Origin: Chiloscyllium plagiosum
Taxonomy: Eukaryota
NCBI RefSeq assembly: GCF_004010195.1
Contig: NC_057718.1
Coordinates: 98,717,794 to 98,781,793, forward strand
Direction: 5' to 3'
Length of the DNA stretch: 64,000 bases
Below the pieces are notes generated by a model. The model was not told the origin of the DNA and made no database searches. It worked only from the letters and a program-made list of their open reading frames with translations. Shown here one piece after another: positions 1 through 62,230 of this stretch. Position numbers and translations under genes: made by a program. Position 1 is the stretch's first letter. The number at the start of each line of letters is the position of its first letter.

Positions 1-600
1 TCAATCCTCGTGTGACATCTATGCGGATTGGAGAAAAACGTGAAATCCCTACCTGTAGGGTGGAGACACCTCCAGACGTCCACCAATCCTAATTCCCCAC
101 ACAAACCCAATAACTGTTTAGTTTGTGCAGAGGGTATCGAGGGACCTTTCGGCAACCTGTCTACTGTGGGGTCCATGAGGCAGTTAAAATCTCCCCCTAT
201 AATGATGTGCCGAGACTTGAGACTTATCAGTTTAAAAAAATTCTACTAAGAATTTAAGAGGATGAGCTGGGGGACAATAAACATTTAAAATGCCATATTC
301 TTCCCCATTTATCAAGGCTTTAAGAATTATAAACCTCCCATATGTGTTTTTAACACATTCCAACAATTTAAATGAGAGATTTTTCCTTACCAATATAGCT
401 ACTCCCCTACTTCTGGTATTAAATGATGAAAAATAAACTCGGTCAAAGCCATTTTGCTGTGATTTCAGTTGCTCCTTGTCATCCAAATGTGTCTCCTGTA
501 ACAAAGCAATATCCACCTTCTCCTTTCTAAGACTCCTCTTAATTGGTGAGTGACTTCCCTTGATATTCCAGGTACACCATTTAATCAAATCATTAGCCAT
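1..600 (-). pseudogene. L1 ORF2 N-terminal APE endonuclease domain, frameshifted near 240
   Basis: MANDLIKWCTWNIKG..LLQETH..SRGVAIL..GRFII..NVYCP; a different frame continues IIGGDFNCLMDP..LVDVWR..FTFFS..TRID. These are typical LINE endonuclease motifs. Confidence 0.9.
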
Positions 601-1366
601 AATCTTCTGCAATTACATTTAAATTCCGGAGAGGAGGAAGCCGAACCACAAATAGCTGAGCCCTAGTGTCGCATGGTCCACCAAATGTAAAAACTACATA
701 AACTAAAACCACTACATTTAACAAACATACAAAATTATTAAAAATAAAAAACAACAAAAACCAGAAAACAAACCAACATATAAAGCGTCAATAGCGCTGA
801 GTAGGGGAACTCATCCCCTGCCCGGAGGGGGCAACTACCTATCCGGAACTGCCCATAATAGGCATCTAACCATCTCAACCACCTTTACTTCTCCCAGCTA
901 GAGCCGCATTGCAAGCGCGAGCTAAAAAGAATAAACACCCCATAGAATATCAATATGAATAAAAAATCGTTCTTTCATAAAAAAAAGGGAATAAATACCC
1001 CACCCATCCTTTGGTATGTCCTAACTTAGAAATTTAAAATGTACATCTTAACCACCGCCAGACATAGTTTGAACCAAATTATTATCAATAGATGGAAAAA
1101 AAAGGGAAAAACAAAGCTCCAACCGGATTTCCTCCATTTCTTTTATAGAATGATAAACAAAAATAAGCACTACCGCACTTAGGTGGTAGTGTGAGGGTTT
1201 TATTTTAAAAAAAAAGAAACAGGGGATCTCACACACACCATGGGTGCTGGGGAAAAAATAAGCACTACCGCACTTAGGTGGTAGTGTGGGAAAAAGAGAG
1301 AAAAAAAAATAGAATGATAAACACATACCCAAGCAACAATATTTATACATACTACAATTGTTTAAC

Positions 1367-2170
1367 TTAAGTTAGTTTGTCCATAAAGTCTCTTGCCTTC
1401 TCCGATGTGTCGAAGAGATGCATGGATCCATCTAAGGTGATCCGAAGCACTGCCGGATATCTCAGGGAGTACTGAATCCCAAGCTCCTTCAATCTTCTCT
1501 TGACACCATCATATGATTTTCGTTTCTGGATCACCGCCGCTGAAAAGTCCTGAAAAAACATGATCTTAGACCCCTCGTAAATTAGGGCCTTTGGATCCTT
1601 CTCCTGGAGTCTGGAAGCCTCCTTGACTCTCTCCATATCCCGGTAATGATGGAACCACACCAGGAAAGAACGAGGGCGTTGACCCAGACCCGACCTCCAT
1701 GCTGCGACCCGGTGAGCCCTCTCTATCTTCAATCCTCTCATGCCAGTCTCCAAGTCAAAGAATTTTGGAAGCCAATCTTCAACAAATTCCGCAGGCCGCT
1801 CACCTTCCTTACCCTCAGGCAGACCGATGATCCGAATGTTTTTTCTCCTGCCCCTGTTTTCAAGATCATGCACTTGGTCACGCAAATTACAAACCTGCGT
1901 CTTCAGGGCTTGGATCTCTTGCTTGGATGAACTGGCATCAGCTTCCACCACTGTGACCCTGTGCTCCACCTCATCTGTCCTCTTCTCCAGGTCTTGCAGC
2001 TGCTGCTCATGCTTCTGCAGCATGAGAGAGACTTCTCTTCATTGTTTCCCCAACATCTCGCGTGATTTCGAGAGCTGGTTCACCAGGTCCTGGAGAGTAA
2101 TCAGCTCCGAGGCTGCTGCAGGCTGAGCTGCAGGCCCGGCCTCAGATGCTCCTCCTCCCTTTTTAGGCAT
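1367..2170 (-). pseudogene. L1 ORF1p (coiled-coil/RRM RNA-binding protein) with in-frame premature stop near 2040
   Basis: LENRGRRKNIRIIGLPEG, IERAHR, FFQDFS and LRYPAVL motifs. The ATG at 2170 is in frame with ORF 1367..2023 but interrupted by TGA. Confidence 0.88.
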
Positions 2171-2992: not shown

Positions 2993-5140
2993 ATTATTAA
3001 TGTTCACTGAATTGCTTACCTCTGTTACCCTTTTTTCAGTTTCAGCTCATCTAAATTTCCACAACCTATCTTCATATCTACATCTGGTCCAACTCTCCCA
3101 TTTCCTTTCTCCTTGCAATTCATGCTAGTTCCCAATTTCCCAATACACCAGTTTAAAATTCTCATCCTTGTGTTATGGCCTCATCTCTTCCCCAGTCAGT
3201 AACCTCCTCTTATTCTACAATGACTCCAATCGTCCTCACTCCTCTAAATCTTACAGATCCCTTCTCCCTTCATGATGTCTGGAGCCCTTCTACTTCCTTC
3301 ACCTCCTTTAATACTCACGTTGACTGGGAGTCGGGACTCTTTCTGGGTCCTGAAATGGAAAGGAAATAGTCACCCTGTGGGATTTTCATTGAGTGTCCCA
3401 CTTCATTGACTTGGAGTCAAGTTCCCTGTCCAATTATGGGCTGTTGAGCCTGGATTGGAGGGTAAGTAATTAAGAAGAGGATTCCTTGTGGTGGTGAACT
3501 CTCACCCACTCTCTTTACGTAAATGGCAAATAGAGCAGCACCCACATCTGGGTACCAGCCATTTAAAAAAAAAGTCATCTATAGGAAGTGACCATCACTG
3601 ACTGGGCCAGCATTTAATTTCTATCCCTAATCGTCCAGAGGGAGTAAAGAGTCAACAACCTTGGTGTGTGTCTGGAGTCACATGCAGGCCAGACCAGGTA
3701 AGATTTTCTTCCTTCAAGGTACATTAGTGAATTAGATTTCTTTGACAATGGTTGGCATCATGCTAAATTTTAATTTTAACTCTAGATTCTCATCGCATTC
3801 AAATTTCACAATCTGACATGGTGAGATTTGAGCTAAAGTCCCCAGGACATTTGTTTGTGTTTCAGGATTATTAATCCAGTGACCATTACTGCCTCTGGGC
3901 TGCTAAACTGCCTCCATTAGTTGGTAAACTGAACATAGAGTGGAAATTCCCAGTCGGCCTCATTTAATTTCTGTCAATAAAGGTTCTCAACAAGCCTTAA
4001 CCGCTCTGAACCGCATGGGGGAAGGTAACACAGTAAGTCCTGAACTGTTCAGGGCAAAATGAGTGGTGTTGGGAACAGGGCTGAAAAACTAAGCCTGGTA
4101 GTTTCAAGGCCAAGCTTCCACAATACTTTTTCCTTAAATTATGTGTCCATTTCTTTTTCCAATTAGGCCTTGTGAAATGTTTTTGAACATTTAACTACAT
4201 TAATGGCTGAACAACAGTGATTAATGAATGATTTAACTGAACAAAGCACTGGTACTTTGTACTGCAAAGTACAAGCTGCACACCCACAATATTAATGTAA
4301 CTGGAATGGGGTGGATCACAATAAAATATGGAACAGTCTGTGCTTTTCATGTATCCATTTGTTAAAAGATCGCCTGTAACAAAAGATTAAAAAAAGACAC
4401 AATAGAAATAGTGCCTCAAGGTTTTCATTTGAAAAAATGCCCAAGGCCTTAAAATGACTACAGGGTGGATTGTGACAACCTGACAAAGGGATTTTAGAAA
4501 TGATATTGAATTAAGATGATTGTCAATTGGAAGAAAATGTATTCTTAGCGTCCAATAGTTCATGAAAACACCCCTTTAAAAAATCACATAGACATACAGC
4601 ACAGAAAGATGTCATTAGGCCCATTGTACCAGTTGGCACTTTGAAAGAGAGAGAGCAGTCACTGATAAGTCCAGACCCCCTCTCCTGTCTGTAACAAGAG
4701 ACTGCATTTGCATAGCTCCTTTAGTACAGTACATTACCCAAGGTTGATGCACAGGATGTTATCAAACAAAATTTAACACCAAGCCATAGGGGAAGATATT
4801 GGAACAGATGGCCAAATGTTTGATCAAAGAGGTAGGTTTACATCAGTGCTGTAAGGGAGGATAAAGAGTTGGAAAGGTGCAGAGCAGGAATTTGGGAGCT
4901 TGAGCCCTCAGCAACATGCCTATCAATGGTGGAGCAATTTGAAATTTATGTCTATGAGACACCATAAATGGAGGAGTGGTGACTGCAGTGCTGGCAGAGA
5001 TTACAATGATATGGAATAGGCATGATGTTGGTGGGCTTTGAGAATGAGGTTGAGAATTTTTCAATTGAAGTGTTATTTAACTGGATTCGTGTGCTGGAAG
5101 AGCACAGAAGTTCAGGCAGCATCCAAAGAGCAGCGAAATC

Positions 5141-5167
5141 GATGTTTCGGGAAAAGCCCTTCATCAG
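5141..5167 (-). ncRNA. Minimal hammerhead ribozyme motif (variant) in the inverted PLE repeat
   Basis: CUGAUGA-A-GGG-CUUUU-CCC-GAAA-CA-UC. Confidence 0.6.
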
Positions 5168-5359
5168 GAATACAGGCAGAGGGCCTGAAGCGTGGAGAGA
5201 TAAGCTAGAGGAGGGTGGGGTGGGGAGAAAATAGCAGGTGGGGGTGGGGAGAAAGTAGCATAGAGTACAATAGGTGAGTGGGGGACAGGATGAAGGTTCC
5301 GGATCAGTGGTGCTGGAAGAGCACAGCAATTCAGGCAGCATCCGAAGACAGGCAAAATC

Positions 5360-5387
5360 GACGTTTCGGGCAAAAGCCCTTCATCAG
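5360..5387 (-). ncRNA. Minimal hammerhead ribozyme motif, intact core
   Basis: CUGAUGA-A-GGGC-UUUU-GCCC-GAAA-CG-UC. Confidence 0.8.
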
Positions 5388-6253
5388 GAATAAAATAGGT
5401 CAGGGAGGAGGGTGGAGTGGATAGGTGGAAAAGATTCAAAAACACCAGCAACGGTTCTCCTTCAAGATCCTCCACTCCACGCTTTCAGCAATGCGCCGGC
5501 ACCTAACCTCTCTACAGTCAGCCCTGCCTCAGCTGAGGGCCAGACTTTCTCAGAATTGCAAAGGACCCACTCTGTACTATATCCTCAGGAGAATTCATAC
5601 TCTCAACAAACAGTATATCAACTCCATCTCAAACATCAAAAACTGTAAGGACAACAAACTTTTATCTACCCACCTCCATAACCAGCACTCCTCAAACATT
5701 CCAGAAGATTCCCCCGGCCTCTGGAACTGCTCGGACGCCATTAGCCATGCGGCTGGTGCAGCTGCCACCCCCACGCTGATTGATGATGTCACTTCCGCCT
5801 CCATCATGGCCACTCCCACAGCCACTTCCACCCCTCACAATTCCTCATGCATCACGTGACATCACTTCCACCCCTCACATCATCGCTGATGTCACACGTT
5901 CAGTGACTTCCACCACCCCTACTGCCATGTCTGCCACCACTTCTGCCCCCACCAACGCCACTCACCTGCATTCTGCTGACACGCGCCCCCACAGATCCCA
6001 CTGTCACCATTCCCAGCCCCCAGAACCCTGAGTGGAACACCACTCCTGCTCATGACTCCACCCCCATTCCCCCCACCATCACACCCACTCCAGTTACCGG
6101 CTCCACCCCCACTCCCAGCTCCACATCCACACCAGATCCCAGCTCCCAGCCCTGCTGAGTTTTCACCATCCCTCTAGACCTTCCCCTCACTGAGGACGAA
6201 CGATCAGTCCTCAACAAAGGACTCACTTCATCCCCCTCCGTCCACGCATCACT

Positions 6254-6521
6254 NNNNNNNNNNNNNNNNNNNNNNNNNNNNNNNNNNNNNNNNNNNNNNN
6301 NNNNNNNNNNNNNNNNNNNNNNNNNNNNNNNNNNNNNNNNNNNNNNNNNNNNNNNNNNNNNNNNNNNNNNNNNNNNNNNNNNNNNNNNNNNNNNNNNNNN
6401 NNNNNNNNNNNNNNNNNNNNNNNNNNNNNNNNNNNNNNNNNNNNNNNNNNNNNNNNNNNNNNNNNNNNNNNNNNNNNNNNNNNNNNNNNNNNNNNNNNNN
6501 NNNNNNNNNNNNNNNNNNNNN
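6254..6521. other. Assembly gap (268 N) inside the PLE
   Basis: Run of N. Confidence 1.
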
Positions 6522-6807
6522 GGAACACTTCAACCCCAGGGCATCAATGTGGACTTCAACAGTTTCCTCATTTCCCCTTCCCCCACCTCACCTAGTTCTA
6601 AACTTCCAGCTCAGCACTGTCCCCATGACTTGTCCGGACTTGTCCTATCTGCCTATCTCCTTTTCCACCTATCCCTCCACTCTCTCCTCCCTGACCTATC
6701 ACCTTCATCCCCTCCCCCACTCACCTATTGTACTCTATGCTACTTTCTCCCCACCCCCACCCTCTTCTAGCTTATCTCTCCATGCTTCAGGCTCTCTGCC
6801 TTTATTC

Positions 6808-6835
6808 CTGATGATGGGCTTTTGCCCGAAAGGTC
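6808..6835 (+). ncRNA. Minimal hammerhead ribozyme motif in the PLE 3' terminal repeat
   Basis: CUGAUGA-U-GGGC-UUUU-GCCC-GAAA-GG-UC. Confidence 0.7.
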
Positions 6836-7450
6836 AATTTTGCTGCTCCTTGGATGCTGCCTGAACTGCTGTGCTCTTCCAGCACCACTAATCCAGAATC
6901 TGGTTTCCAGCATCTGCAGTCATTGTTTTTACCTTGCTATTTAACTGGGGCCAGTTTAGATCAGTAAGTACATAAGTGTTAGCACAATCAGTTTTGTTTG
7001 TTTCTTAATCCTCATGTAGCTGCCCAACATTTTAAAGTCATTTACGGCATCAGCTTTCAAGCATTCCAGATCCTGACAACCAAAGGAAGAAAATTACTCA
7101 TCTTCCCTTTGGAACATTTGTCACTGCTGTATGACTCTCGCTTTGGTCCATTGGTCTGAAGGAATCAATTTTCTCACTGTTTTGAAAACTGCAATGAGAT
7201 CACCATTAATCTTATTAAGCAAACAGTTTTGCAGCGAGCATATGTTTGGACATTACTTCTCTTGCAATCGGCCATATAATGAAATTGTACAGGGATGCAA
7301 ATTAAAAAACAGGCTTCAGGTTAAGTTCCAGTTAAATGAGAGAATTTCCCTGATGGATTATATTAAAACACGGTATATTTTGAGGAATGCACATCATTAA
7401 AACACTGAAGTACTATGGACATTTTGAACTTGAAATCCAAAATGAGTTTT

Positions 7451-10506: not shown

Positions 10507-10703
10507 TCTAGATTAAAGTGGTGCTGGAAAAGCACAGCAGGTCAGGCAGCATCCAAGGAGCAGGAAAATCGACGTTTCGGGCAAAAGCCCTTCAGGAAAT
10601 GTCGATTTTCCTGCTCCTCGGATGCTGCCTGACCTGCTGTGCTTTTCCAGCACCACTCTAATCTAGACTCTGATTTCCAGCATCTGCAGTCCTCACTTTT
10701 GCC
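10507..10703. mobile_element. Head-to-head (fold-back) short PLE-derived element
   Basis: Arms 10507-10578 and 10596-10667 are reverse complements. The flanks TAGATGCACAGTATC and TAGATGCCACAATATC form an imperfect TSD. Both hammerhead cores are broken. Confidence 0.85.
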
Positions 10704-12711
10704 TAGATGCCACAATATCCTTAACACAGGTTTGGGATGAGGTTGACATTTGAACCTGGGTCTCCACCTCCCAAAGAGAGGGTTGCACTCATGAAAGGGT
10801 GCAACCATGGTGAAGATCAATCTAGTGGAGGTCTTCTCCCCTCTGCTCTGATCCACTTCTGTAATTCAGATTATCAAGGTGTCCTTGCTGTTGCCCACCT
10901 GCATCAGCAGTACCTCTGCTTCTAGTGGAATGGTTGAGACTCTAGTGTTACTAGAACTCTGTTGAAACAGCAGGAGGATGACAAGCTCAGAGGTAGACAG
11001 TTAGGAGTCCATCTCCTGGAAGGTGGTTACTCTGTCTTGCTGGTTGCCAGGGTGAATTCAGAACCTCTACTTGGTCCTAAGCTTGGGGTCCCAAAGCCTG
11101 AGAGAAATTTCTGCCCAATGTGTCATGTAATATGACAGGAATCCTAGATACATGAATGGGACAGGTGATGCTGTGGAAGTGTCAAGGAGGTCATTAGGTA
11201 GACAGCCTCTTTACCCAAGGAGTGGTGCCTATAATGTGAGACACAGGGGAGCTTTCAGTGACATGCACACGATAAATTCAACCTTGAAGAAATAGCACCC
11301 ATGCTTTATGAAACCTATCGAACTGACATTATTGTTGTGCCTTTGCTAGTCTCATTTTGCCACCCCACTTCCAATCTTGTCATCTTGCACAATTTCCCTC
11401 ACTTATTATTGTCAGAATTCCGTATTTGTGTCGATTCAGTATTGGGCCTTCCTCTCTTGGTTGCATGTTCTCCACTGCGTCATTTCTTTGTGGGAGGGAA
11501 GGTGAGATTGGGATTAATGACTACTTTAACCTCTTACAGGTTGCCAAACTGGATACACTGGACTGTTGCCAGCATCTAATGTCTTTCTCCCTTTGCAAAC
11601 AGTATAACTGACATCATGGGTGCACTGTGTTTGCGAAACAATCACTTTTTCATTGTATAGGCGTCATTGTGAAATTTGCCCTAGACGCATGTGAGATACG
11701 ATCAAATATTGGATTGATATTAGAAATGTCAACATAACAGGTAACAAGAAATAAAAATGCCATGTAAGGAAAAGAAAATGCAGTTTTGAAGGTGGTGGTT
11801 CTCTGCCCTACAATGTACAGCTTTTATTTTTTAAGGGCAAAATAAACATTAAAAAGGAGGGGTAGTTTTTGACTTATAAAGTGGGAACAGAAATTGCAAG
11901 GCTATGCTGTTGTTCAATCTGTTAGGTCTTGATTGTGCATTCCATCTTCATCTATAGCCAGCTGTGCACCAGGAATGGAGCTTCCCGATTTCTGTCCTTG
12001 TTATGTTATGTATTCCACCCACAGAGCTTGAGCACAGACACATGTAAGCAGGCAGTGCAGTCCCCATATGGATAAGAGTCTTATTTACTCATAACGCACC
12101 ATCTGCTATCTTGTCAGGGTAAGATTAACAAAGTCACACTCCACCAAAAACTGAAAAGCAATACTCACCAGAGCTCCAAGTGCTACTGCATACATTTGAA
12201 TTGCAACACAGTTACTGATACTGTGCAAGAATTAGGTGGTGATGTAGTGCTTGAAGGCGAGACATTAAGACCTGGCGATAAAGAGATTGCACTAATCATA
12301 ACTAATGAGAAATCAGCTGGTATTCCTGAGTTGGCAAAGGATAGTAACCAGCTTTACGAATAAGACTAGCAGATATCTCATCACAAATCCACTGGGATTA
12401 TCTGCTGCTAACCCCAATGGACTTTACAGGGTTGAGGGTGGGGGAGGGTGAGGCCACTTACCACTTAAATGGCAAGTCCCTGCACCATGAGGGGTGTTTC
12501 TGAGACATCCCAGCATTCTAACAAGGCTGTAAAATGTAACTGAATTGGAGACTGGTGATCTGGAGGGGTCATCACAGCTATATCATTCCTTTTCTCCAAC
12601 TCCTGTAATACACTCATATTCTGCCTGGCAGGCCATGAAAAGTCTGGAAATGTGAAGATCCCTGTCATGAGGAATCCATGTCCCTCAACGGGCTTGTTTG
12701 GAATGGTGGTT

Positions 12712-19991: not shown

Positions 19992-20569
19992 TTTTAACAT
20001 AAGCTGTAACATTGAGACAGTAGTGGGGGTCACTGGACCCAAAATGTTAATGCTGATTTATCTCCACAGATGCTGCCAGACCTGTTGAGCATTTCTATCA
20101 ATTTCTGTTTTTGTTTCTGCTGCTGGGTTCCCAGCTCTAGACAGTTCATTTGCCTTGTGTAGTGTCAAGATGCTGGAGACAGATTGGAAAATCCTAGTCA
20201 TCTCTTACTGGGCTGCCTGAACCTTTCACCCTTAAAATGGTCAGTGCTGGAAATAGTGCTGAAATTATCAGACCCTGACTGACTTCATTCCTGGCCTTGG
20301 GTGGGAACTCAAAATCTTGCCTTCTGTGTCACTGCAATATTGCAAAGAATGGCAGCCTATATGCAATTTCAGGCTCTGGCCATGAGGTGGTGCTTCAGTC
20401 AAGCATTAAATGAATTCAATGGAGCAAAAGTAAACTAAAGCAGTTGCTGGAAATCTGAAATAAAAATAGGGTGCGTTGGATGGACTCAAGAGTCCATGGA
20501 GAGAGATACAGACTTAACATCAGGCCAATGACGTTTCATCAGGACTGGCGGTAGTTAGAGAAAGTCGAC

Positions 20570-22216: not shown

Positions 22217-22815
22217 AAGACCATAAGACATAGGAGCAGAAATTAGGTTATTCGGTCCATCAAGTCTGCTCTGCCATTCAATCAACCCCATTCTCTTGCT
22301 TTCTCCCCTTGATCCCCTTGACAATCAAGAACCTATCTATCTCAGTCTTAAATATACTGAAAGATCAGACTTCCACAGCCTTCTGTGGCAGTGGATTCCA
22401 TAGCATCACCACTCTCTGGCTGAAGACGTTTCTCTTTATCTTCTTCTAAAAGGTCTTCCCTTTACTCTATGGCTATGCCCTTGGGTCCTAGTCTTTCCTA
22501 CCAATTGAAACATCTTCCCAACATCCACTCTGTCCAGGCCATTCAGTATTCTGTAAGTTTCAATTAGATTCCCCCTCATCCTTCTAAGTTACATTGAGTA
22601 TAGACCCAGGGTCCTCGAACATTTCTCATACGTTAAACTATTCATTCCTGGGACCATTCTCATGAACCTCCTCTGAACCCGCTCCAGGGTCAATACAGCC
22701 TTCCTGAGATATGGGGCCCAAATGTGCACATAATACTCCAAATATGGTCTGACCAGAGCCTTATAGAGCCTCAGAAGTACATCCCTACTCTCATATTCAA
22801 GCCCTCTCAAAATAA
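22217..22815 (-). mobile_element. CR1 LINE 3' fragment
   Basis: LLRLYKALVRPYLEY..WAPYLRK..LERVQRRF. Confidence 0.88.
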
Positions 22816-23840
22816 ATACCATTCTTTTTCAGACTGGAGGCCTGTGATCAGTGGTGTTCAACAGGTATCAATGGTGGGTCCACTTTTGTTTCTCATTTAT
22901 ATAAATGATTTCAATGACAATATACAAAGCATGGTCAGTAAGTTTGCAGATGACACCAAGATTGATGATATATTCGGTAGTGAAGAAGGTTATCTAACAT
23001 TACAAAGAGATCTCAATCAATTGGATCAATGGGCTGAGAAGTGGCAGATGGAGTTTAATTTGGATAAATGTGAGGTATTGCAGTTTGGTAAAACAAATAA
23101 GGACAGGATTTATACAATTAAAAGTAACACCTTGGGTAGTGTTGTCGAACAGAGGGACCTAGTGGTTCAGGTGCATAATTCTTGAAGTTTGCACCACATA
23201 TAGATAGGATGCTTAAGAAGGCCTTTAGCATGCTTGCCTTCATTGCTCAGACCTTGGAGTATAGGAATTGGGATGCTATGTTGAGGTTTTAAAGGACATT
23301 GGTGAGGCCTCTTCTGGACCATTGTGTCCAGTTCTGGTCTCCCTGTTATAGGAAGGTTATTATTATGCTGGACAGGGTCAGAAAAGATTTACCAGAATGT
23401 TGCTGGGAATAGAGAGGTTGAGTTATAAGGAGAAGCTGAATAGATTGGGATGTTTTTCACTGAACCACAGGAGGTAGAGGGTGATCTTAAGAGGCACTTA
23501 AAATGATGAGGGGTATAGAGATGAATGGCAGGTATCTTTTATCTAGGGTGGGGGATCTCAAAACTGGGGGCATATTTTTAAGTTCAGAGGAGGAAGATTT
23601 TAAAAAGACATAAGGGGCAATTTTTAATTACACAGTGTAGAATTCTCTTCCAGAGGAAGTGGTTGATGTGATACAGTTACAACATTTAAAAGACATTTAG
23701 ATAAGTTCATGAATAGAAAAGGTTTGGAGGAATATGGACCAAGCGCAGGCAGGTGGGACTAGCTTGGTTTGGGATTATGGTCAGCATGGACTGGTTGGAC
23801 CAAGCAGCCTGTTTCCATGTTGTATGACTCTATAACTTCT
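22816..23840 (+). mobile_element. CR1 LINE RT-to-3'-end fragment
   Basis: SDWRPVISGVQQ..GPLLFLIYIND..KFADDTK..WAEKWQMEFN. Confidence 0.92.
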
Positions 23841-23926
23841 ATTCCAGCAGGTCTGTACATCTAAACAAATCTTTCTCGAATATTTTCTGATAGATTTTTC
23901 TTTTATTCGAGTGAACATTTTATATG

Positions 23927-24052
23927 GGGAGAAAGTGAGGTCTGCAGATGCTGGAGATCAGAGCTGAAAATGTGTTGCTGGAAAAGCGCAGCAGGTCAGG
24001 CAGCATCCAGGGAACAGGAGAATCGACGTTTCGGGCATAAGCCCTTCTTCAG
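23927..24052 (-). mobile_element. 126-bp hammerhead-headed PLE-derived element with a perfect 14-bp TSD
   Basis: GAACATTTTATATG at 23913-23926 and 24053-24066. Confidence 0.92.
24025..24052 (-). ncRNA. Minimal hammerhead ribozyme motif, intact core
   Basis: CUGAAGA-A-GGGC-UUAU-GCCC-GAAA-CG-UC. Confidence 0.8.
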
Positions 24053-26441
24053 GAACATTTTATATGCCAGTTTCCAAATGTAATCTCCTTATCAGATGAA
24101 TGAACAAAATCAATTTTGAAAGTCAAGGTGGTTGTCTCAACTGAGTTGTGGGATCAGAGCAGTATAGAAGTGAAATCGTGTCACAATGTCAAGATTTAAG
24201 TAAAAAGTTACAAGGAAGATAGCATTTAAGTAAATGTTTAAACAAAATATCAAAAGGGAGAATGAGAGGGAGGAACAATAAGGTGAACAGGAGGAAGGCA
24301 GTAATTTAAAACAATTTATATATTTTAAATTTTAATTTTATAAAGTTTATCTTTAGGAAGCCAGTGAGCTGATTATAACTGCAGTTTTTGAATAGTTAGA
24401 GCTCTCTTTGTGGCACTGAGTATATTAAAAATATACAACGATAAGGTTTCTGCTTACTGTGTTTGTATTGCAAAATATACTTTATTCATAATAAACCTTT
24501 GAGTAAATACACAGATACTAAATCAATTTTGTGCAGTCTTTACATATCAAGAAAAAACAAACAAGGGAATATGACATTCACTGCAATAGCAAAAAAAGGG
24601 GCATTTCTTATTTATGCAGGACACTATTTACATACATAGAGGCAATGGAAAGGTCTGACAACTGAATGGATCTCCATTATACTTTGGCAGAAAGACGTTA
24701 GGACGCTGCTTACTGTGTTACTGTATGACTCTGTCATTGTGTGTGAGCTGAAAGCTTTCAAAATGATGGTCTCGGAACCTGGAGTGGATTAAACGCGTCT
24801 GTCCATTATGCATGATGAATCTTTGCCTCGGTACTCACATCGTTATGAATGATCATTGCCAAACCGTTTGTTCTGATGTCCCCTATTGAAACAATACATT
24901 TGGTACCGTGTAATCCTAATGAATGGACAAACATAGAGCCGCTGGTGAGATCTGGGATTTCCACAGAAGCCTCTCCCCAGTGGGGTTAGGATCTTCAAGG
25001 GTTAGAGGGCAGTGGACAGAGCCGTGATGTGATCTACAGAAGCTAAAGGCAGGGTTGTTGACTGCAATTTGAAATAAAATATTGACAATGCTTATGGGAA
25101 AACTGTCGGTCCGTTTTATAGCGTGTTTTCTCTCCCAAAAATGGAGAACTGCGTCATTTCCTGAGAATGTTTGCATTCAGCTGCCTCAGAGAGGACTCCC
25201 TGCAGACCAAGACATATCTTAATCGGTGAATTGTCAACAAACCTCAAACTTTGCGTGAGGTCCGAGTTAACTTCCCGGAGGCGGTCGATTCCTCACATAG
25301 TGGGGTTTGTTGTTGAAAAAAAGATGTTCAATGTAACAGGAGAGCCAATAATAAACGCCTGGTTTACTCTAGAGTTTGGATTACCTCACAATCCCTTCAA
25401 ATCTGAAAAGGTGACTGAAGATTTACAATTAACCAGGGCAAATATCTCAACCATTTCCCCACCCTGGCTTCAAAATAGAGTTGCATTTAGCAGTGCAGAA
25501 GAACAGATTACTGGTACAATTTGGCGAGTTCAGTTCATTTCAGAACAGATGGTTTTGTTGACGGTTTACAGAATGGAAATACCTGCGTATGCTGGAAATC
25601 TGACCAAAAAAAAGCTGTCAGTGTACAACAGGTCAGGCAGCGTCTGTAGAGTGGAACAACGCTTTATCCCTGTGAAAGAGACATGAACTTGAAAAATTAA
25701 TTCGCTTTCTCTCCCCACCTCGCCTGCTGAACGTTTCCAGCGTTTTCTTTTTCTGTCATTAATTCTGTGTTGGTACTTGGAGCGTTGCCCAGTGCCCACA
25801 TACTGAGCCCTCCAGTTTTCAGTTAGGATTGCAAGTCATATCCCACAACAGTATTACAGTTACATTTCTTACTCATCATTGTACGCTGGAAACCACACCA
25901 GAGCAAAGTTAACGGTTTTTGTGAGACAAAGAATTAAAGCAAGGTTCCTTAGTGTAGAGAACAATCAACAAACAATTTATCGTAAATTCTGGACACGTTA
26001 GATGCATGAATATAATTGATGCATATAAGGTCCGAGTGCTTCTTTTAAGGTAAGTGGCGTTCGGGGTACAATATTTCTACTCAGCCCTTTCCAACTGCGA
26101 AATTCTTTAGGCACATTCCTATGAAACGAGTTGTTAGGACCTTCAAAGTGTTATAAAGTCCTGAGTTCATCAAATAAACTGTATTTAGATCGTCACACAC
26201 GGGGAGAGAAAGGAAAACAGGATCTGCAGGAAATATTTAAAAGCTAGGATATTTTTAACTATTAGTTTTAGTTCTTTCACTATCAGTCCTTGATCAAAGC
26301 TGGAGAAGTTGTTGAGCCTCCTTTGTCGAACTGCTGTGATTTCTCCAGAGAAAGTGCTCCTAGAGGCGACAGGGCTGATACTGTCGTGACAGCACAGACA
26401 CTGGAATAATGATGCTGAGGGGAAGGCAGAAATCCTGAGAG

Positions 26442-33152: not shown

Positions 33153-34647
33153 TAAAAGATGCATCCTTTTGACCTGTCAAGCATCCTCAGCATATTCATG
33201 TCTTGCCCAATGGTGCATCTGGCTTTTTGAATTGTTTTCACTTTTTCTCTTGTGGTCTCATTGGTTAGGTTCTTCATGGGTGTCATCCACCTTTTCAACA
33301 GGTACCTCTTGGCCCTGAGCAAATACTTGATAGGTGTGCTGTTAGTTGTGAAGGGAGGATGAGTTGCTTCAGGACTATATGGCCATGAATTTTGCACACA
33401 CTTCTATAAAGATCCCTTTACCATTGTACATTGATGGAGCTGGAGTTCATGTGGTTGATGAGTACTCCTGGGAGATGAGAGATTGCTTCAATTGCAGAAA
33501 TCAATGATGCCCTGTATTTGTGCCAAGCTAGCGAGAACTGCAACCCTGAGTGCCCAGTCATTCTGACTGGCACCATCACAGGAAAAGTGTACGTAACTTC
33601 TGGTTCTGGCAGACAAGCCATCATTTGCCTCTCAAATGCATTTGTGCGCCAGCTACCGTACGATCCTCCAATTGTCTCTGGTGAAGTCCTGGAAAGATCC
33701 AAAGGCACAAACATTGAAGCTGGAGGTGTTGTAGATGGTAAAGTATGGCCACCAGACCAACAGGTGCCAATCTAACAAATGTAACTTAAGACCCTGAGCC
33801 TTCTTGAGAAGTTACTGTTCCCATGTGTTGAGGAGGTTTATCCTCTACCTGCATATTCTTTTTAACAGGTTCTGCCTCCTGTGAACTGCACCTGTCTGCT
33901 GAATCACCTTTTCCTGTGGAGCTGCAGGACTGTGAGCAACCAACTGTCACTGCTTCTGGTGCTTTTGCTCTGTTGCTAGAGATCACCTTGGTTCTTGCAT
34001 GAAGACCAAAGTAAAACAGCTCAAGTTGTCCCTTTATTGATCTGACAGCTGAGAGCTTCTGAGCGCAGAACAGACACAAAATCCTCGAAAGTGTAGGTGA
34101 CCCCTTCTGAAATGCGTACAGTCAAGGGTGTCAACTCTTTTGTTTTTCTCCTGCACATTTTTCATGCTCATTCAAAATGTTAGTGTTGGAAAATATAAAA
34201 TCTCTCTTTCTATTTGCACAGTACTAACCACTGGAAGTCACAGATTTAAATTTTCTCCACTCTGTCATAGGTGTGTGAAGCTCAACTTCAGACAACCTCT
34301 CAGCCAACATTGTGAACTTTCCATTTCATAGCACCTATCCTTATGGTTTGTCTGAATGCAGTTACTGATTTCATGCTAACTGCATTTCCGACATAACAGA
34401 AATTAGCTTTGCTATTGGGAAACATATCTTTAGAAGGTGCTGTAGCAAATGTTTGTCTCAGTGCATAATTTCTACGTATTCAATTCAATTTGAATTTGGC
34501 TATTTTTGTCAGTGTGACTGGAGAAATGTTATTTGACTTGTACATCTCACAGTCACAGTCTGCCATGTTTTGAAATGTCCTTCCTGGAGAGGCTGTGCTT
34601 TGGTGGTAGACTGGCTTACTACAAATTGTAGGTATAGCCAGTATGTT

Positions 34648-34863
34648 GCTGAAAATGTGTTGCTGGAAAAGCGCAGCAGGTCAGGCAGCATCCAAGGAAC
34701 AGGAGAATCGACGTTTTGGGCATAAGCCCTTCTTCAGGATTCCTGAAGGGCTTATGCCCGAAACGTCGATTCTCCTGTTCCTTGGATGCTGCCTGACCTG
34801 CTGCGCTTTTCCAGCAACACATTTTCAGCTCTGATCTCCAGCATCTGCAGCCCTCACTTTCTC
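34648..34863. mobile_element. Head-to-head (fold-back) short PLE-derived element with a perfect 13-bp TSD
   Basis: About 90-bp inverted arms centred near 34740; TAGCCAGTATGTT at 34635-47 and 34864-76. Confidence 0.92.
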
Positions 34864-35459: not shown

Positions 35460-35518
35460 TCAGGGAGCAATTATATTTGTATGAATGCTTTCACTTCTCA
35501 ACACTGCTATCCTTAAGG

Positions 35519-35680
35519 AGAAAGTGAGGACTGCAGATGCTGGAGACCAGAGTCAACAGTGTGGTGCTGGAAAAGCACAGCTATGCTAACATTGATGAAG
35601 GGCTTATGCTCAAAACGTTGACTCTCCTGCTCCTTGGATACTGCCTGACTGGCTGTGCTTGTTCAGCGCCACATGTTTTG
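35519..35680. mobile_element. Older fold-back PLE-derived element with TSD
   Basis: Flanked by ACACTG(C/A)TATCCTTAAGG (35501, 35681); decayed core TTGATGAAGGGCTTATGCTCAAAACGTT. Confidence 0.8.
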
Positions 35681-35851
35681 ACACTGATATCCTTAAGGCT
35701 ACTTAACTTAAATTTGTAGTTTTTTGCATTTTTGTCCCAAATCCTGGACAGCTTTTTTGTGAATTAACCCACGTCCAATCAAAATGGAGCTGGAAATTTA
35801 CAAATATGTTGTTTCTTAACAACCTGTGGAGAGTTAGTTTAAACTATATTT

Positions 35852-43501: not shown

Positions 43502-43610
43502 GCTTATGCCCGAAACATTGATGCTCCTGCTCTCCGGATGCTGCCTGGCCTGCTGCGCTTTTCCAGCACCACACTTTTAGACATTGACTCTCCAGTATCC
43601 GCACTTTCTC
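43502..43610 (+). mobile_element. Short PLE-derived element truncated inside hammerhead stem II
   Basis: GCTTATGCCCGAAACATTGA...CACTTTCTC. Confidence 0.8.
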
Positions 43611-46600
43611 TTAAACTCCTTAACTCTGGTCACCTCAGCCAAAGAAAGCTCTTTTCATAAAGAGACAGAGGCGGGATAAGAAGTGAGATGGAAAAAGAAA
43701 GATAGTTAAAAAAAAATGCAACAGAAATGACTGCGAAAAAGAGAGAGAGATGGAAAGATATGTAAGCAAATTGTTTGTGTAATGAAAAAACAAAGGACTG
43801 GAAGATATCAAGTGAAAAATATTTCTTCTGTGAAAAACACCATAACTTAACAACTGGTAACATTAAAAATGATGGCTATACAGCAAACTACATTTATATA
43901 ACACCTTCTTTATAATAAACTATCCCTAAAGGCTTCTCAGGAGAACTTTCAGACTGAAATTTGGGCTCTGTTTTTAATCGAGCATTGACTAAAAGTCTTC
44001 TGAAAATTCATTCAGTGTGTGCTAGCTCTGAGATTCAGGCAGTTTTGATTTTAATCCCATCAGAGTATTTTAAAAAGATTGATGTCTGTAATAACCTTTC
44101 GATTGCATGTGTTCTGTTTAACTTTTATGACTGAGTTGCTCTGTGCACATCAATTGCTTTGTCTATTGCTGTTATAATTCAGTGGCCTATATCAGAGTGA
44201 AGAGTGGATCCTGAATTCACAGATGTCAGCAGTGGGTCTGCCTCAGAATTTGGCTGCTTCTGATAGCTAGAGAGGTGGTTGTGCATGAAGTATGGAGGAG
44301 AACCTGCAGGTGTGCCAGGTAAATTCATACAACAGTTCAGGAATTCGACACCTGGAGCAAGGAGAGCACTCTCTCTGAGCACTCTCTGGGTGTTTCATTT
44401 TTTTGCTCACACCTCTGCTTCCCCCCCCCCCGCAACTCTGGGTGCAGTGAGGTCACCTTCATTTAGTTGCCACCCTGCTGTCAGTGAAATGCCAGCAGAC
44501 CCATCAAGTAGCCCTTAATTGGATCTGTAATTATGCTAATTGGCTTGCTACTTCCTCGGAACAGAATCTCACTGCTGGATAGAAGCCCCAGTGATGGGGC
44601 AGTCCCAAGTGAGGTTCCTGCTATTTTACCTCATCTGTCATCCATGAACTGGTAAAATGATGCCCAATGTTGCAACTTGTAAAAAATTGAATAGCACTGA
44701 AAGTGTGATGACATTTTCATATTAAATAACTAATTGCTGCATACGTAGCCAACAACACGCAGCTTACATCTGCTAATATAGAAAACACTCGATTCAGAGT
44801 TCTGCATTAATCACCTTTGACTATTTATAATCTGTTATATTTGCACACACCTCACAAATACAGCTGCATCAAAACTTTAAATAGGGAGATGATGTTGCCT
44901 CTATACAAGTACAAAAATGATTAGCAACACAAAAGAAGACCATTTTGGGCTATTGTGGTTGTGTCAATCCAGAAAAAGCTATCATCTCTAATTCTGCCTG
45001 TCCAACTCTGCATAAGCATGTAGATTCTTCATCACAGTTCCATACCACAGTAGAGACACAGACAAAACATTGCCTTGGAGAATGAAACAGGAAAATATAG
45101 GTGTGCTATTATCCAGTTAATAAAAAAAAAGGCACAAGGCATATTCTATTTGTTTACTGAGAATATAGGCTCTTTGGGTATGAAAATATGTCACTTCTAG
45201 TTGAGATAAATGAGCCATGTCGCAAGCTTTTTATCTTAAAATGTCAATGTAGCAATTAGCGCACTCAGGATTGTTCAGCAAGTATTATCCCATCATTGAA
45301 TCATATCTAACAATAACATGAGGGGCAAATATTTTACACTGAGGTTTGGTCTCGTGAGGAAGTGGTGGATGTGAGTACAATTATAACATTTGAAAGACAT
45401 TTGGATAAGTACATGAACAAGAAAGGGATATGGCATATGGGATATGAATATAGTTTAGTTTGGGATTATGTTCGGCATGGACTGGTTAGACCAAAGGATT
45501 TTTTTCCATCCTGTATGACTCCATGACTCTATAATAGCTGACATGGGACAATCAGAGTCCTTTTGTCAACTAATCAGCACCCTCTTCTTCTATAGTGTAA
45601 AATATTGTGATCATTTAAAATTGGCATTGTGTTTGTATTTGTCTTGAAGAATGCAAGCTGAAATGCTTTGGCAACATTCCCAACTTTTTTCAATATTCAA
45701 ACAAGTTAAAGTAAATGAGGAACCAAATGAGTAAAATTAAAATTTGGAACTGGAATGATGGCAGTGAGAATGACAATTGGACCTGTAATAGGAATGACAA
45801 TCTCACTCATTAATAAAAAAAAGCCTCAAAGTTTCGAAAAGTTATAAATAAACTTACTGAGTATGTGAATTCTGCGTGTAACAGAAAATAGGAAACTGCT
45901 CAGAGCTCCAGGGAAGGCCGCGTGGATCTTATTAAAATATTCTGATACATCCATCGTTCTGAGCTGCACAGGATAAATTCTAGAAGCATAATAATCATCC
46001 AAATCTAATCCTTCGGTTATCCCAGATTCTCATTACTCCAGTATTGGTGTTTGTGTTTGCAACTGACTAGAGTGTAAACAATGGAACTTCCTCCCGAAAT
46101 ATTTCGAATTTTCTCTCCTTGATTACAATTTTGGTCATCTACCCTCATGTTCGCTGATAAGAATCAGAGCCAATATTGTTTTAATAAGCACTGCTGTAAA
46201 GTGTCTTAAGGTATTTTAGCATTGTTTGTTCAGGGCTTCAGTAATGCTAAATAGCATTGTATGTCATGGTGCAGGATAGTCCTGGTGGGCTTAAAAGTAT
46301 TACTTTTTGGCAGAAGTCACTTATTGTAGTTTAGACAATACCATTCTCAAAGGCATCCCAGGTTGCGAATTTCTTCATTTTTCTTTAATTAATGTTGCAT
46401 TATTGGATAGGGATATTGCGAAGAGCTAAGAGATCTATTTGGAATCTTTGCTTCATGGATTTTTTTTTTGGAACAGACTTTTTTATTTCTCATTTGAAAA
46501 AGCATTAGCTTTCAGGGCGCTGTTTCCTATTGTAGAATGTAACTGGGGCCTTGATGTTGATAAAAGCACAGCTGCACCATGTTAGTCCCTTAGCTCTGAA

Positions 46601-47406: not shown

Positions 47407-47523
47407 GGCAAAAGTTACGACTGCCGATGCTGGAAATCAGAGAGGTGCTGGAAAAGCACAGCAGGTCAGGCAGCATCCAAGGAGCAGGAAAGTCAATGTT
47501 TCGGGCAAAAGCCCTTCATCAGA
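47407..47523 (-). mobile_element. Hammerhead-headed PLE-derived element
   Basis: Core at 47495-47522: CUGAUGA-A-GGGC-UUUU-GCCC-GAAA-CA-UU. Confidence 0.82.
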
Positions 47524-48373
47524 CTGACTTCTGCCATAGGCTGCCTTTTTCTTGTTTTATCTTTCTCTGGAACTCTTTCGTCCTCTTGTGCACTCTGTTT
47601 GTCCTCCATACCTCCCTTATAAGAACGTTCTCAGGTGTTTCCTGAACTTCTTCTCCTTTATGGCTAATCATTGCTCTATTATATTTGTGCTGATCAATCT
47701 TAGGCTTTGCTTTGTCTGGCGCTTCAGTACTCTGAAGTTAGTTGTCTTGCAACATAGCTATTTTTATTCAAGACAGCTCCTTGTCCTTCCCTACTTGGTA
47801 TTATAATTGCCTTTCCTGAGATGTCCTCTCACTGTGCCATTTCCCACTTGACCCACTTCAAGAATCAATGTCCTCTTTCTCAATGGGTAGGGTGAACGTT
47901 ATCGTCAAGAAAAGCGCCCTGAACACATTTCAGATATTTCCCTCCTTCTCTTCCTTTGACATGATAATAATTCCATTCAATATCGGAGACTTGGAGTCTC
48001 CCATTCTCAGTATTCCATAGTTCTTGCATCTCCCTGTTCACCTTCAAATGCATAAGACGGTCTTGAACAGATCTCAATGCTCCACAGTAGTAGCCCCAGT
48101 GCCCAAAAATGTGAGGACTTCACTCCTATTTTATATCTTTAGCCGCACATGGACTTGGCAGATTCTCCTGTTTCAGTTCTCATTATTATGCCGCACTGGG
48201 AAGAATTCAAAGGTTACTGTCAATGCAATCCTGTTTTTCAACTTCCATACTTATTCTGCACACTCTGACTGCAGAATCTCCATCATCGTCCATCCTTTTT
48301 TGTTGGTTCTAACCTGGACCGTGACTTCTGCTCTTCTTTATCCCCTGGTAGCATGTTCTGGACCTTTTCATGA

Positions 48374-48469
48374 AGATTCCTGAAGAAGGGCTTATGCCCG
48401 AAATGTCGATTCTCCTTCTCCTTTGATGCTGCCTGACCTGCTGCGCTTTTCCAGCAACACATTTTTAAG
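48374..48469 (+). mobile_element. Hammerhead-headed PLE-derived element, short 3' form, 10-bp TSD
   Basis: Core at 48380-48407: CUGAAGA-A-GGGC-UUAU-GCCC-GAAA-UG-UC. CTTTTCATGA at 48364 and 48470. Confidence 0.88.
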
Positions 48470-52052: not shown

Positions 52053-52106
52053 GTCCTTTAAACTTGAACAACCAAGACGACCCAAGCTTGCAGGTGAGTG
52101 TATTGT

Positions 52107-52234
52107 AGGAGAAAGTGAGGACTGCAGATGCTGGAGATCAGAGCTGAAAATGTGTTGCTGGAAAAGCGCAGCAGGTCAGGCAGCATCCAGAGAACAGGAG
52201 AATCGACGTTTCGGGCATGAGCCCTTCTTCAGGA
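52107..52234 (-). mobile_element. 128-bp hammerhead-headed PLE-derived element with 13-bp TSD
   Basis: Intact core at 52205-52232: CUGAAGA-A-GGGC-UCAU-GCCC-GAAA-CG-UC. GTGA(G/A)TGTATTGT at 52094 and 52235. Confidence 0.9.
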
Positions 52235-58501: not shown

Positions 58502-58703
58502 GAGAAAGTGAGGTCTGCAGATGCTGGAGATCAGAGCTGAAAATGTGTTGCTGGAAAAGCGCAGCGGGTCAGGCAGCATCCAGGGAACAGGAGAATCGAC
58601 GTTTCGGGCATAAGCCCTTCTTCAGGAGCTTATGCCCGAAACGTCGATTCTCCTGTTCCCTGGATGCTGCCTGACCTGCTGCGCTGTTCCAGCAACACAT
58701 TTT
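58502..58703. mobile_element. Head-to-head PLE-derived element with 15-bp TSD, inserted in CR1
   Basis: CAACACTACCCTGGG at 58487 and 58704; intact minus-strand hammerhead core at 58598-58625. Confidence 0.92.
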
Positions 58704-58740: not shown

Positions 58741-58832
58741 AGATTAGAGTGGTGCTCGAAAAGCACAGCAGGTCAGACAGCATCCGAGGAGCAGGAAAAT
58801 CGACATTTCGGGCAAAAGCCTTTCATCAGGAA
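58741..58832 (-). mobile_element. Hammerhead-headed PLE-derived element, short 3' form
   Basis: Core at 58802-58829: CUGAUGA-A-AGGC-UUUU-GCCC-GAAA-UG-UC. Confidence 0.82.
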
Positions 58833-60014
58833 CACCTACCCTTATTCACTTTACCAAAGTGCAATACCCTGCATTCACCCAAATTAGAATCTATCTACCA
58901 CTCTTCATCCCATTGTCCCAATTGATCAAGGTCCCTTTGTAATCTTCGACAGCCTTCTTCACTATATTTCTTCCAATTTTCATGTCATTTGCAAACTTAC
59001 CAATGATGCCTCCTAATTTCTCATCCAAATCATTTATATAAATGACAAACCTCAGTGAACCCAACACTAATCCCTTCGGAACATTGCTAGTCACAGGGGT
59101 CCAGTCCGAAAAACAACCTTTCACCACCACCTTCTGTCTCCTACAGACATTTTCTATCCAAATGACAAGGTTTCCCTGAACCCCGTGTAATCCAACTTTA
59201 CTAATCAGTCTACAATGCAGAACCTTCTCAAAGGCTTTACTAAAGTCCATGGAGACAATGTCTACTGCTTTGCCCTCATCAATGTTTTTCGTTATGTCCT
59301 CAAAAAACTTAATCAAGTTTGTGAGACATGATTTCCCATGCACAAGGTCATGCTGAGTATCCCTAATCAGTCTGTGTCTCTTCAAATGCATGTAAATCCT
59401 ATCTCTCAGCATCCCCTCCAACAGTCTATCCATCACCAATGTCACGCTCAGAGGTCTATAGTTCTCAGACTTCTCCTATGGCCTTTCTTAAATAAAGGCA
59501 CCACATTAGCCACCCTCCAGTTCTCCAGCACCTCATCCATGACTGTGGATTATGCAAATATTTCTGCTAGGGGTCGGCAACATCTTCCCTAACTTCTTAC
59601 ACACTGGGATACACCTGATCAAATGCTGGACATTTATTCACTTTTATGTTTTTTAACATCTTCAGTACTTCCTTTTCTGTAATGTGGACTGTTTTCAAGA
59701 CATCAATATTTATTTCCTTGTTCCCTTGATTCTTTCTCTGCAATAAAAAATGTCGCAAAATATTTGTGTAGTATCTTTGCCATCTCCTTGTTTCCACACA
59801 TAGACAATCTCATTGATCTTTAAGGGGCCCTATTCTCTCCCTAGTTGCTCTCTTGCTCTTAATGTACTTGTAGCATTTCTTCAGATTATCCTTCACCTTC
59901 TCTGCCAAGGATATCACATATTCCCTTTTCATCTTCTGATTTCCCTCTTAAGAATGCCCCTACACCCTATACTCTTCAAGAGATTCACTTCATCCCAGTT
60001 GTCTATATGTAAAA

Positions 60015-61342: not shown

Positions 61343-62230
61343 AAACAACAAAGAACACAACAGTACAGCACAGGAACAGGACCTTCAACCAACCAAGACT
61401 ACACTGACACATGATGCCTTTTGAAACTAAATTCCTTTTGCCTCAACATGGTCCATATCCCTCTGTTCCTGCCTGCTCATATATCTGTCAAGATGCGTCC
61501 TAAACATTCACTTCCACCACCTCCTATGGCAGCGCATTCCAGGCACTTACCACCCGCTGTGTAAAAAACTTTTAAAAACCCATCTCCTTTAAACTTGCCC
61601 CTTTTTACCTTAAACCTATGTCTCCAAGCAACTGTCATTTCTACCCTGGGAGAAAGACTCTGACTATCCATTCTATCCACACCTCTTATAATTTTGTAAA
61701 CTTCTATCAGGTCCCACCCGTCATCCTTTGACTTTCGAGTGAAAACATACCAACTTTGTCCAATCTTTCCACAGAGCCAACACTCTCTAAACCAGGGAAC
61801 ATCTTGGTATACAGTTTCTGAACCACTCCAAATCTTCCATATCCTTCTTGTAACGCGATTACCAGAACTGTACACAATATTCCACATACGGCCTAACCAA
61901 ATTTCTATACAGCTACAACATGACTAGCCAATTTTTGTATTCCATGTCTTGACCAATGAAGGCAAGCATGTTAGATGCCTTCTTGACCACATTATCCATT
62001 TGTGTTGCCACTTTCAGGGAACTGTGGACCTGTATGCCTAGATCCCTCTCTATGTTAATCCTATTAAGTTTTCTATCATTTATTGTCTACATCCCTCCTG
62101 TATTCAATCTTCGATATCACCTCACAGTTGTCCGGATTAAATTCCATCTGCCATTTCTCTGCCTAAATTTCCAGCATATCTAAATCCTGCTGTATCCACT
62201 GGCAATCCTCCTCACTATCTGCAGCTATTG
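61343..62230 (-). mobile_element. CR1 LINE 3' fragment
   Basis: DLIEVYKIIRGVDRMD..RHRFKVK. Confidence 0.85.

Follow-up and report, generated by a model that had tools for sequence, protein, structure and literature searches.

An abundant hammerhead repeat of Chiloscyllium plagiosum as the probable pseudo-LTR and 5' leader of coding Penelope-like elements

A stretch of 64,000 nucleotides from Chiloscyllium plagiosum (contig NC_057718.1, positions 98,717,794 to 98,781,793), referred to here as the window, holds many copies of a short repeat headed by a minimal hammerhead ribozyme, which the preliminary description took for a non-autonomous mobile element derived from Penelope-like elements (PLEs). 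The locus therefore raises the question of whether such copies form a family of their own or are parts of coding PLEs, and of how their ends and their frequent inverted arrangement could come about. The alternatives weighed below concern different steps, and not all of them are mutually exclusive.

Positions within the element are counted from C3 of the CUGA motif (+1), with the preceding base as -1, and the predicted cut lies at +28/+29; copies with a 3' end near +92 are termed short-end, and those with a 3' end near +126 long-end. Ends were mapped on 202 tail-seeded copies from blind stretches, core-centred stretches and the flanks of other loci (cited by L numbers), and since copies were seeded on the tail, their 5' ends are unselected; 38 of the 202 run into N and were treated as censored. 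The genome-wide search used an exact 30-place pattern over 3.56 Gb, with the reversed pattern as control.

The ribozyme motif proved to be as first described. The cores given as intact (5360, 24025, 52205 and 58598) all have 0 mismatches, and those given as variant carry 1-2 substitutions each (6808, 47495, 48380 and 58802) or one substitution and one deleted base (5141). Both the pattern and a structure descriptor recover a PLE-type minimal hammerhead, with a CUGANGA ... GAAA ... UH core and helix II present. Among 174 descriptor hits, the extra base after A9 is A in 169, as had been claimed, and helix III is likewise palindromic with no loop 3, reading ACGU in 130, a CpG-decay form in 31 and the palindrome AGCU in 9 that belong to another family. 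The G10.1-C11.1 pair is present in the hits, with the stem GGGC/GCCC in the main families, and C3, U4, G5, A6, G8, A9 and G10.1 are invariant in seven aligned sequences (four subfamilies and three other families). Helix I has 4 Watson-Crick pairs in the CUGU subfamily; in other subfamilies, it consists of 2 pairs, a U-U mismatch and 1 pair.

Two further hammerhead families were observed. The second, with 9/174 descriptor hits, has helix II GGAG(C)/(G)CUCC, the helix III palindrome AGCU, a helix I of 3 bp and the cut triplet CUA or CUU (L163:1863, L013, L062, L080, L157, L051, L017 and L151). In the third, helix II is 6-7 bp long, the extra base is U or C and helix I reads CCA/UGG (L053:2837, L068:9197, L160:521 and L064:768). 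Because these two unrelated families keep the core with different helices, one of them with AGCU for ACGU, the hammerhead fold is supported across families.

The claim of very high copy number was borne out by 80,723 exact genome-wide matches (40,334 + 40,389), against 0 for the reversed control. The looser structure descriptor gave 23 hits per 264 kb versus 0-1 in 20 shuffles, and BLAST with the copy at 24025 returned 19 matches within the window, including one weak older relative. The 52 tail-seeded copies within 264 kb would translate to several hundred thousand arms overall, as a rough extrapolation that includes the reader-chosen window. Rfam gave no match to the whole window at gathering score and, at the focal copy with E up to 10, chance matches only and no hammerhead, the minimal form being scored by no hammerhead model. 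Copies had also been said to carry target-site duplications of their own, and this agrees with the 14 bp that flank the focal copy and with 17/60 single copies having a duplication, compared with 17/600 mismatched controls. At the focal copy, the three core-adjoining bases of the right duplication equal element positions -3 to -1, a microhomology. The features of the window are collected in Table 1.

Table 1. Copies of the hammerhead repeat and PLE parts mapped in the window (window coordinates).
Feature	Position	Strand	Basis
Focal short copy, -3 to +126, with hammerhead and PLE leader; distal 'long' 3' site	23927..24055	-	End mapping
Minimal type I hammerhead core of focal copy; predicted cut 24025/24024	24025..24052	-	0 mismatches; geometry per PMC4209133
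Optional ~34-nt tail between the 3' end sites (~+92, ~+126), focal copy	23927..23960	-	Bimodal 3' ends
Target-site duplication of focal copy, left, 14 bp	23913..23926	.	
Target-site duplication of focal copy, right, 14 bp	24053..24066	.	
One long broken PLE insertion	5085..6937	+	BLAST, ORF pieces; middle reads N
Variant core, inverted left arm of 5085-6937 insertion	5141..5168	-	
Intact core, second inverted piece of 5085-6937 insertion	5360..5387	-	
PLE ORF, N-terminal part	5425..5856	+	119/133 aligned residues identical to post-core ORF in L035
GIY-YIG region, C-terminal residues	6522..6560	+	By-eye match to end of L103 domain
Variant core, 3' pseudo-LTR of 5085-6937 insertion	6808..6835	+	
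Head-to-head pair, short left/long right; duplication degraded	10507..10707	.	
Head-to-head pair, short left/long right; 13-bp duplication at 34635, 34864	34648..34863	.	
Older head-to-head pair, long left/short right; 11-bp duplication at 35508, 35688	35517..35692	.	
Older copy from +11, core incomplete	43502..43613	+	
Older single copy, variant core, internal deletion	47411..47522	-	
Single short-end copy from -4; 10-bp duplication at 48364, 48470	48376..48469	+	
Single long-end copy, intact core 52205-52232; exact 8-bp duplication at 52099, 52240	52108..52234	-	
Head-to-head pair, long left (intact core 58598-58625)/short right; 15-bp duplication at 58487, 58704	58502..58703	.	
Single short-end copy, variant core 58802-58829	58749..58832	-	

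Not every copy of the window is a short single element, as had been supposed: the cores at 5141, 5360 and 6808 all lie within one long PLE insertion, and four insertions are head-to-head pairs. The long insertion consists of inverted pseudo-LTR pieces with a short end on the left, ORF pieces, and a 3' pseudo-LTR with a long end on the right, between 11-bp duplications at 5074-5084 and 6938-6948. A flanking duplication was sought at the older copy at 47411..47522 and none was found.

Coding PLEs with this core occur elsewhere in the genome. L068 has a reverse transcriptase (RT) motif region ~0.5-1.3 kb upstream of the core (Pfam RVT_1, E 7.9e-5, below the curated cut-off; Atlas best cluster 0.96, animal RT), and L103, from the other main family, has a GIY-YIG domain upstream of the core (E 1.6e-4, below the Pfam curated cut-off). 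The order RT, GIY-YIG and pseudo-LTR (pLTR) is read from RT and GIY-YIG each lying just upstream of the core in different copies; the domains come from separate copies because all 20 long candidates (L071-L090) read N over 2.6-4.9 kb in the middle, and no uninterrupted full ORF can be read in any of these 20. They have real sequence at both ends, most with ~3.5 kb from ORF start to core, a pattern that suggests many near-identical young copies. Junctions of core, tail and ORF were found at L035, L081 and L089, as well as L126 and L131, covering both main families, with the start codon ~165 nt past the core; the ORF N-termini of the two families have 149/246 aligned residues in common, and the N-terminal pieces gave no match to Pfam. 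Partial tandems (L089 is one), inverted 5' copies, a 30-40 bp tail at one end and target duplications are all present, and the core lies in the pLTR of a PLE at L068, L089, L103 and window 5085-6937. Since the same ~130 nt follow GIY-YIG/RT and precede the ORF in long copies, the repeat is probably the hammerhead-bearing pLTR and 5' leader of coding PLEs, with the short copies likely to be by-products of insertion.

The preliminary description had instead regarded the short copies as an independent non-autonomous family, which could have its own short master transcript and be mobilised in trans by the PLE protein. Such pLTR derivatives have been published (PMC8557442; bioRxiv 10.64898/2026.07.22.740005), and it would agree with them that the singles have their own duplications at the rate given above, that short copies dominate three subfamilies (41/51, 15/18 and 4/6), and that two small haplotypes (4 copies each) were seen as short copies only. 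Nevertheless, five of five main loop-II subfamilies contain both short and long copies with common haplotypes, so that the main subfamilies and the commonest haplotypes also occur in long, ORF-linked copies, and, those two small haplotypes apart, the short copies do not carry the diagnostic variants, absent from autonomous copies, that an independent SINE-like family would own. ORF-bearing copies moreover have the same 5' boundary, short copies from -4 are without the upstream pLTR, and the two alternative 3' ends are paired inside one insertion. A separate family is accordingly quite improbable.

Once inserted, the copies seem to be under no selection for catalysis. Across the 129 of 140 copies that could be aligned, non-CpG core sites differ at 46/1,290 positions (3.6%) and tail sites at 90/3,612 (2.5%, a value lowered by seeding the copies on the tail), while CpG core sites differ at 77/516 through CpG decay. 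There is no sign in these 129 genomic copies of constraint on the core after insertion; single copies look neutral, as the catalytic core shows no stronger conservation than the tail, and those scattered through the genome are probably inert. Compared with shuffles, neither the focal copy nor the leader folds any better (z 0.16 and -0.79). In the minimum-energy monomer, helix II is retained and the hammerhead junction is absent; the predicted monomer hammerhead fold lies 1.0 kcal/mol above the minimum, with the helix III duplex contributing just -3.1 kcal/mol.

The ends of the copies follow simple rules. Among the 202 tail-seeded copies, 3' ends are bimodal at about +92 and +126, ~34 nt apart. 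The 5' ends pile up just before the core, where 58/143 copies at risk end in one 8-nt bin at -1 to -8 (6.5 per 100 nt; 16/32 in the blind set alone), compared with 33/177 copies at +11 to +1 (1.8 per 100 nt) and 0.2-0.8 per 100 nt in seven of eight other bins, confirming that 5' ends are not placed at random. These 5'-end figures are conservative, because end mapping over-extends some old copies, which inflates the long class, and because loci were picked near long elements. Among 65,044 exact cores of CUGAAGA/UNAU type genome-wide, native upstream sequence is kept exactly to -11 in 13,498, and 8,932 break at -5 with -4 to -1 kept; breaks at -1 number 3,334 genome-wide, both break counts having required a filter letter placed further upstream, which about three quarters pass. 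The same boundary recurs in longer structures: of eight copies running past +190 towards the ORF, five start at -2 to -19, one is tandem and two are cut at +36 and +39, and where tandem derivatives or contig joints jump back from the ORF start, they repeatedly reach -5 to -3. Contigs of two organism-labelled run sets (cited by X numbers) also have loose ends at -4, X1 and X4 being contigs of uncertain kind.

The A at -4 stands in a pyrimidine-A-pyrimidine context. This presumably fits the initiator consensus, which is a short motif. In Drosophila, Penelope transcription starts in the pLTR, with an initiator (PMC2377424). It is rather likely that the transcript of the present element would also start there, at the A at -4, and that the 5' strand of helix I would be the first four nucleotides of a capped RNA. 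Taken together, 5' ends spread from -8 to +11, more broadly than a single start site. About 2% of the RNA run X21, from a library unsuited to mapping start sites or cleavage, yielded 1,742 reads of both orientations, whose starts and ends do not cluster; X22 yielded none.

The pile-up could alternatively reflect endonuclease cutting or resolution at the ATT at -4, or stalling of the RT at a hammerhead that is folded or bound by protein, with an RNA reaching further upstream. The endonuclease of a lizard PLE prefers 5'-ATT-3' (PMC11167929), duplications often finish in AT or GAT at the junction, and ends rise within the core too, from +1 to +11. However, a second ATT at +30 is little used, with 750 breaks at +29 genome-wide against those 8,932 at -5, and the jumps from the ORF start repeatedly reach -5 to -3; helix II is 4 bp only, and leader folding is no better than in shuffles. 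Where a single extra base is found, it is an untemplated G in 3/4 cases. We consider this origin of the 5' ends unlikely.

That extra base may carry information on the RNA end. G precedes -4 at 56/95 junctions, and clean singles, that is, the 95 junctions minus 51 inverted pairs, 3 mutated long copies and 6 slips, have G at -5 in 17/35 versus a background of 25% (p 0.003). Eighteen singles with a duplication include three with one untemplated G and one with an untemplated A, and of nine duplication-bearing singles that overlap the element, eight have a target G, which an endonuclease preference would also give. In the second main family, the base at -5 was G in 18 versus A in 15 among 100 matches listed (hand count); at the -1 control, G was present in 38 of 100 matches listed (hand count), mostly explained by inverted partners or slips, and the T-type test of the extra base is confounded by subfamilies with a native C. 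In L1 elements, an extra G at full-length 5' junctions has been taken as the cap (review PMC4859970), and a cap-derived reading of the G at -5 is suggestive only. In six of 41 singles, the opening 7-10 nt of the element occur a second time immediately before it, as if the RT had re-primed at the template end.

Head-to-head pairs were counted among the same copies. An inverted partner was found for 62/202 tail-seeded arms (15/52 in the blind set), giving 55 pairs, 50 of which could be classed: 46 combine one long and one short end, 3 are short+short and 1 is long+long, whereas half would be expected to be mixed (p 2e-10). An exact duplication of 11-17 bp surrounds the whole pair in 24/38 close pairs. 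The arms of 34/45 pairs differ at 13 diagnostic sites versus 119 expected, indicating that both arms come from one donor, although the test favours concordance in that 11/45 pairs with at least 9 differences were dropped. The short-end arm reaches further 5' in 19/38 pairs (by at least 20 nt in 7) and the long-end arm in 10, with 9 ties, a count that leaves out two mis-extended pairs, L116 and L026. Junctions between arms have an overlap of 1-3 nt in 15/40.

Such pairs might be thought to result from self-priming, in which one strand folds back on itself and the tail is left by staggered endonuclease resolution, as was proposed for an antisense template by Arkhipova 2013 (PMC3846280). The alleles common to both arms, rare ones included, and the frequent short overlaps at the junctions would suit that proposal. 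Fold-back of a long-end cDNA, however, needs the long-end arm to reach furthest 5', and the arm lengths given above are often the reverse; a short-end cDNA folding back would have no source for the tail; and for an antisense template, its 3' end would have to be at -4. Because the short-end arm often reaches further 5', simple sense-templated fold-back cannot give these pairs and priming from two target ends can, so that self-priming appears improbable as their general origin.

Priming from two target ends can be set out as a sequence of steps. It is fairly probable that the endonuclease would nick the target strands ~14 bp apart and that reverse transcription would begin within the RNA from both 3' ends, each using one of the two sites. 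Priming on the leader copy would run off at the RNA 5' end after 95-130 nt and yield a short copy, and priming on the 3' pLTR would yield long copies, either 5'-truncated or full. If two cDNAs were joined, a head-to-head pair would result, and if one cDNA were joined to the far target end, a single copy, the joining step probably proceeding through microhomology of 1-3 nt. The arms may fit either one RNA with two primers or two RNAs of one donor. The template would be mostly uncut RNA; cleavage by the hammerhead would be rare or delayed, would involve a dimer or the element's protein, and would take off the first 32 nt together with the cap. In vitro, both target strands are nicked and extended by the protein of a lizard PLE, which initiates at two internal RNA sites corresponding to the genomic tail and takes uncut RNA as template, the ribozyme being protein-assisted (PMC11167929); in that system, the strands were not seen to differ in their start site, which counts against one site per strand. 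We advance only tentatively, as a possible reading of the fossil record, that one capped, uncut RNA would serve a dimeric RT-endonuclease as the template for priming from both nicked strands, at two fixed positions ~34 nt apart, with the hammerhead as a cap-removing switch at the RNA start. If true, the PLE tail, head-to-head structures and solo pLTRs would be outcomes of one mechanism.

Copying from hammerhead-cut, circularised RNA by a retrozyme-like rolling circle was also considered. A few direct tandems do have a core per unit (L149/L150 with period 224; L146; L125), and the 750 breaks at the cut site (+29) exceed the 389 at +33. Typical copies nevertheless read through the cut site as monomers or inverted pairs, the tandem junctions lie at -3 to -26, away from the cut, unit lengths vary, and the excess at +29 is below twofold and coincides with a GAT microhomology; circular RNA is thus a very unlikely source. 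Retrozyme-like arrays were found at 3/30 loci chosen for 3' extension (L125, L146, and L149/L150 counted as one array), and no head-to-tail retrozyme array in the window. The array at L149:1390-2270, which is the same in L150, has four direct units with periods of 224, 224 and 291 and an incomplete first core; within a single ~14-bp duplication, it connects ORF-start sequence back to a point immediately ahead of the core, and looks like a retrozyme-like product of repeated template jumps, with L146 and L125 as smaller cases. Retrozymes derived from pLTRs have been published, including one from a cartilaginous fish (10.64898/2026.07.22.740005), and the present repeat resembles non-LTR retrozymes in being pLTR-derived and non-coding with a type I hammerhead (bioRxiv 10.64898/2026.07.22.740005; Cervera & De la Pena 2020). 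Those are head-to-tail arrays with a hammerhead per unit, whereas here monomers and inverted pairs prevail, with haplotypes common to ORF-linked copies.

The motif itself belongs to a described class. The minimal hammerheads that metazoan PLEs carry in their pLTRs (Cervera & De la Pena 2014, PMC4209133) have the same core, extra base after A9, G10.1-C11.1 pair, palindromic 15.2-16.2 pairs without loop 3 and pLTR position, with copies mostly dispersed as single motifs. The Schistosoma forms in that survey have a helix II of 7-8 bp and a helix I of 4-5 bp, unlike the 4 bp and 2-4 bp here, and a term search of two of its supplements returned no shark term. The exact matches reported here are about ten times its largest vertebrate counts (~4,000 in coelacanth and ~9,000 in Xenopus; PMC4209133). 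The link between hammerhead and PLE (PMC4209133), the one-sided tail and inverted copies (PMC3846280, PMC8557442) and internal initiation (PMC11167929) are already published, so that the motif alone is ordinary apart from its abundance.

The closest functional parallel is Poseidon PAc of Anolis carolinensis (Frangieh et al. 2024, PMC11167929), in which two RT start sites past the hammerhead set the genomic tail. Both target strands are nicked and extended, the RNA template is uncut and ATT lies near the junctions, as reported for PAc and proposed here from genomic copies. In PAc, the hammerhead contains the start codon and reverse transcription begins within the ORF (PMC11167929), unlike in the present elements, whose 3' sites lie in the leader. 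Neither one site per arm in pairs nor a 5' pile-up at the hammerhead was found described in the PAc text, and its Fig. S2 could show 5' coverage (PMC11167929); the likeness to the Poseidon clade is a resemblance only. Head-to-head, 5'-truncated copies with a 30-40 bp tail on one side, a duplication common to the pair and solo pLTRs are likewise known from inverted PLE insertions (Arkhipova et al. 2013, PMC3846280; Craig et al. 2021, PMC8557442), where they were described individually and explained by self-priming or by resolution through the endonuclease; here they were counted, and the arm lengths argue against simple fold-back. Twin priming of L1 also places two primers on an RNA to give an inversion, but it inverts non-overlapping parts of the RNA (PMC4859970), whereas the arms here overlap in the same leader with starts ~34 nt apart. 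A literature search with most subscription journals, Repbase and Dfam outside its scope found no report of the present family, of a 5' pile-up at helix I or of twin priming in PLEs.

The value of the repeat is thus mechanistic, concerning the origin of PLE tails and head-to-head structures and the role of the hammerhead. Short insertions that are young and have clean duplications number in the tens of thousands and offer countable end rules (each pair having one long and one short end, 5' ends stopping just ahead of helix I, and few ends lying at the cut site) that could be tested in existing in vitro systems.

Several minor observations accompany these results. The same PLE family appears in runs X1-X20, which are labelled with three different organisms. 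At window 20069-20101 (+) and several other loci, older relatives have the common tail anchor only, with different stems, suggesting earlier PLE waves of the same leader design. Other retroelements are interspersed with the repeat: by eye, a 223-aa open frame at window 1370-2038 (-) resembles a LINE ORF1 coiled-coil protein, and broken RT-like frames at 22637-23182 (+), 58894-59475 (-) and 61480-61923 (-) look like CR1-type LINEs, to which a frame in L057 is similar (RVT_1, E 7e-20). The L068 PLE copy itself sits inside a CR1-like LINE, and beside a short copy in L003, a 339-aa open frame at 132-1148 (-) resembles, by eye, the RT-connection/RNase H part of an LTR retroelement or endogenous retrovirus.
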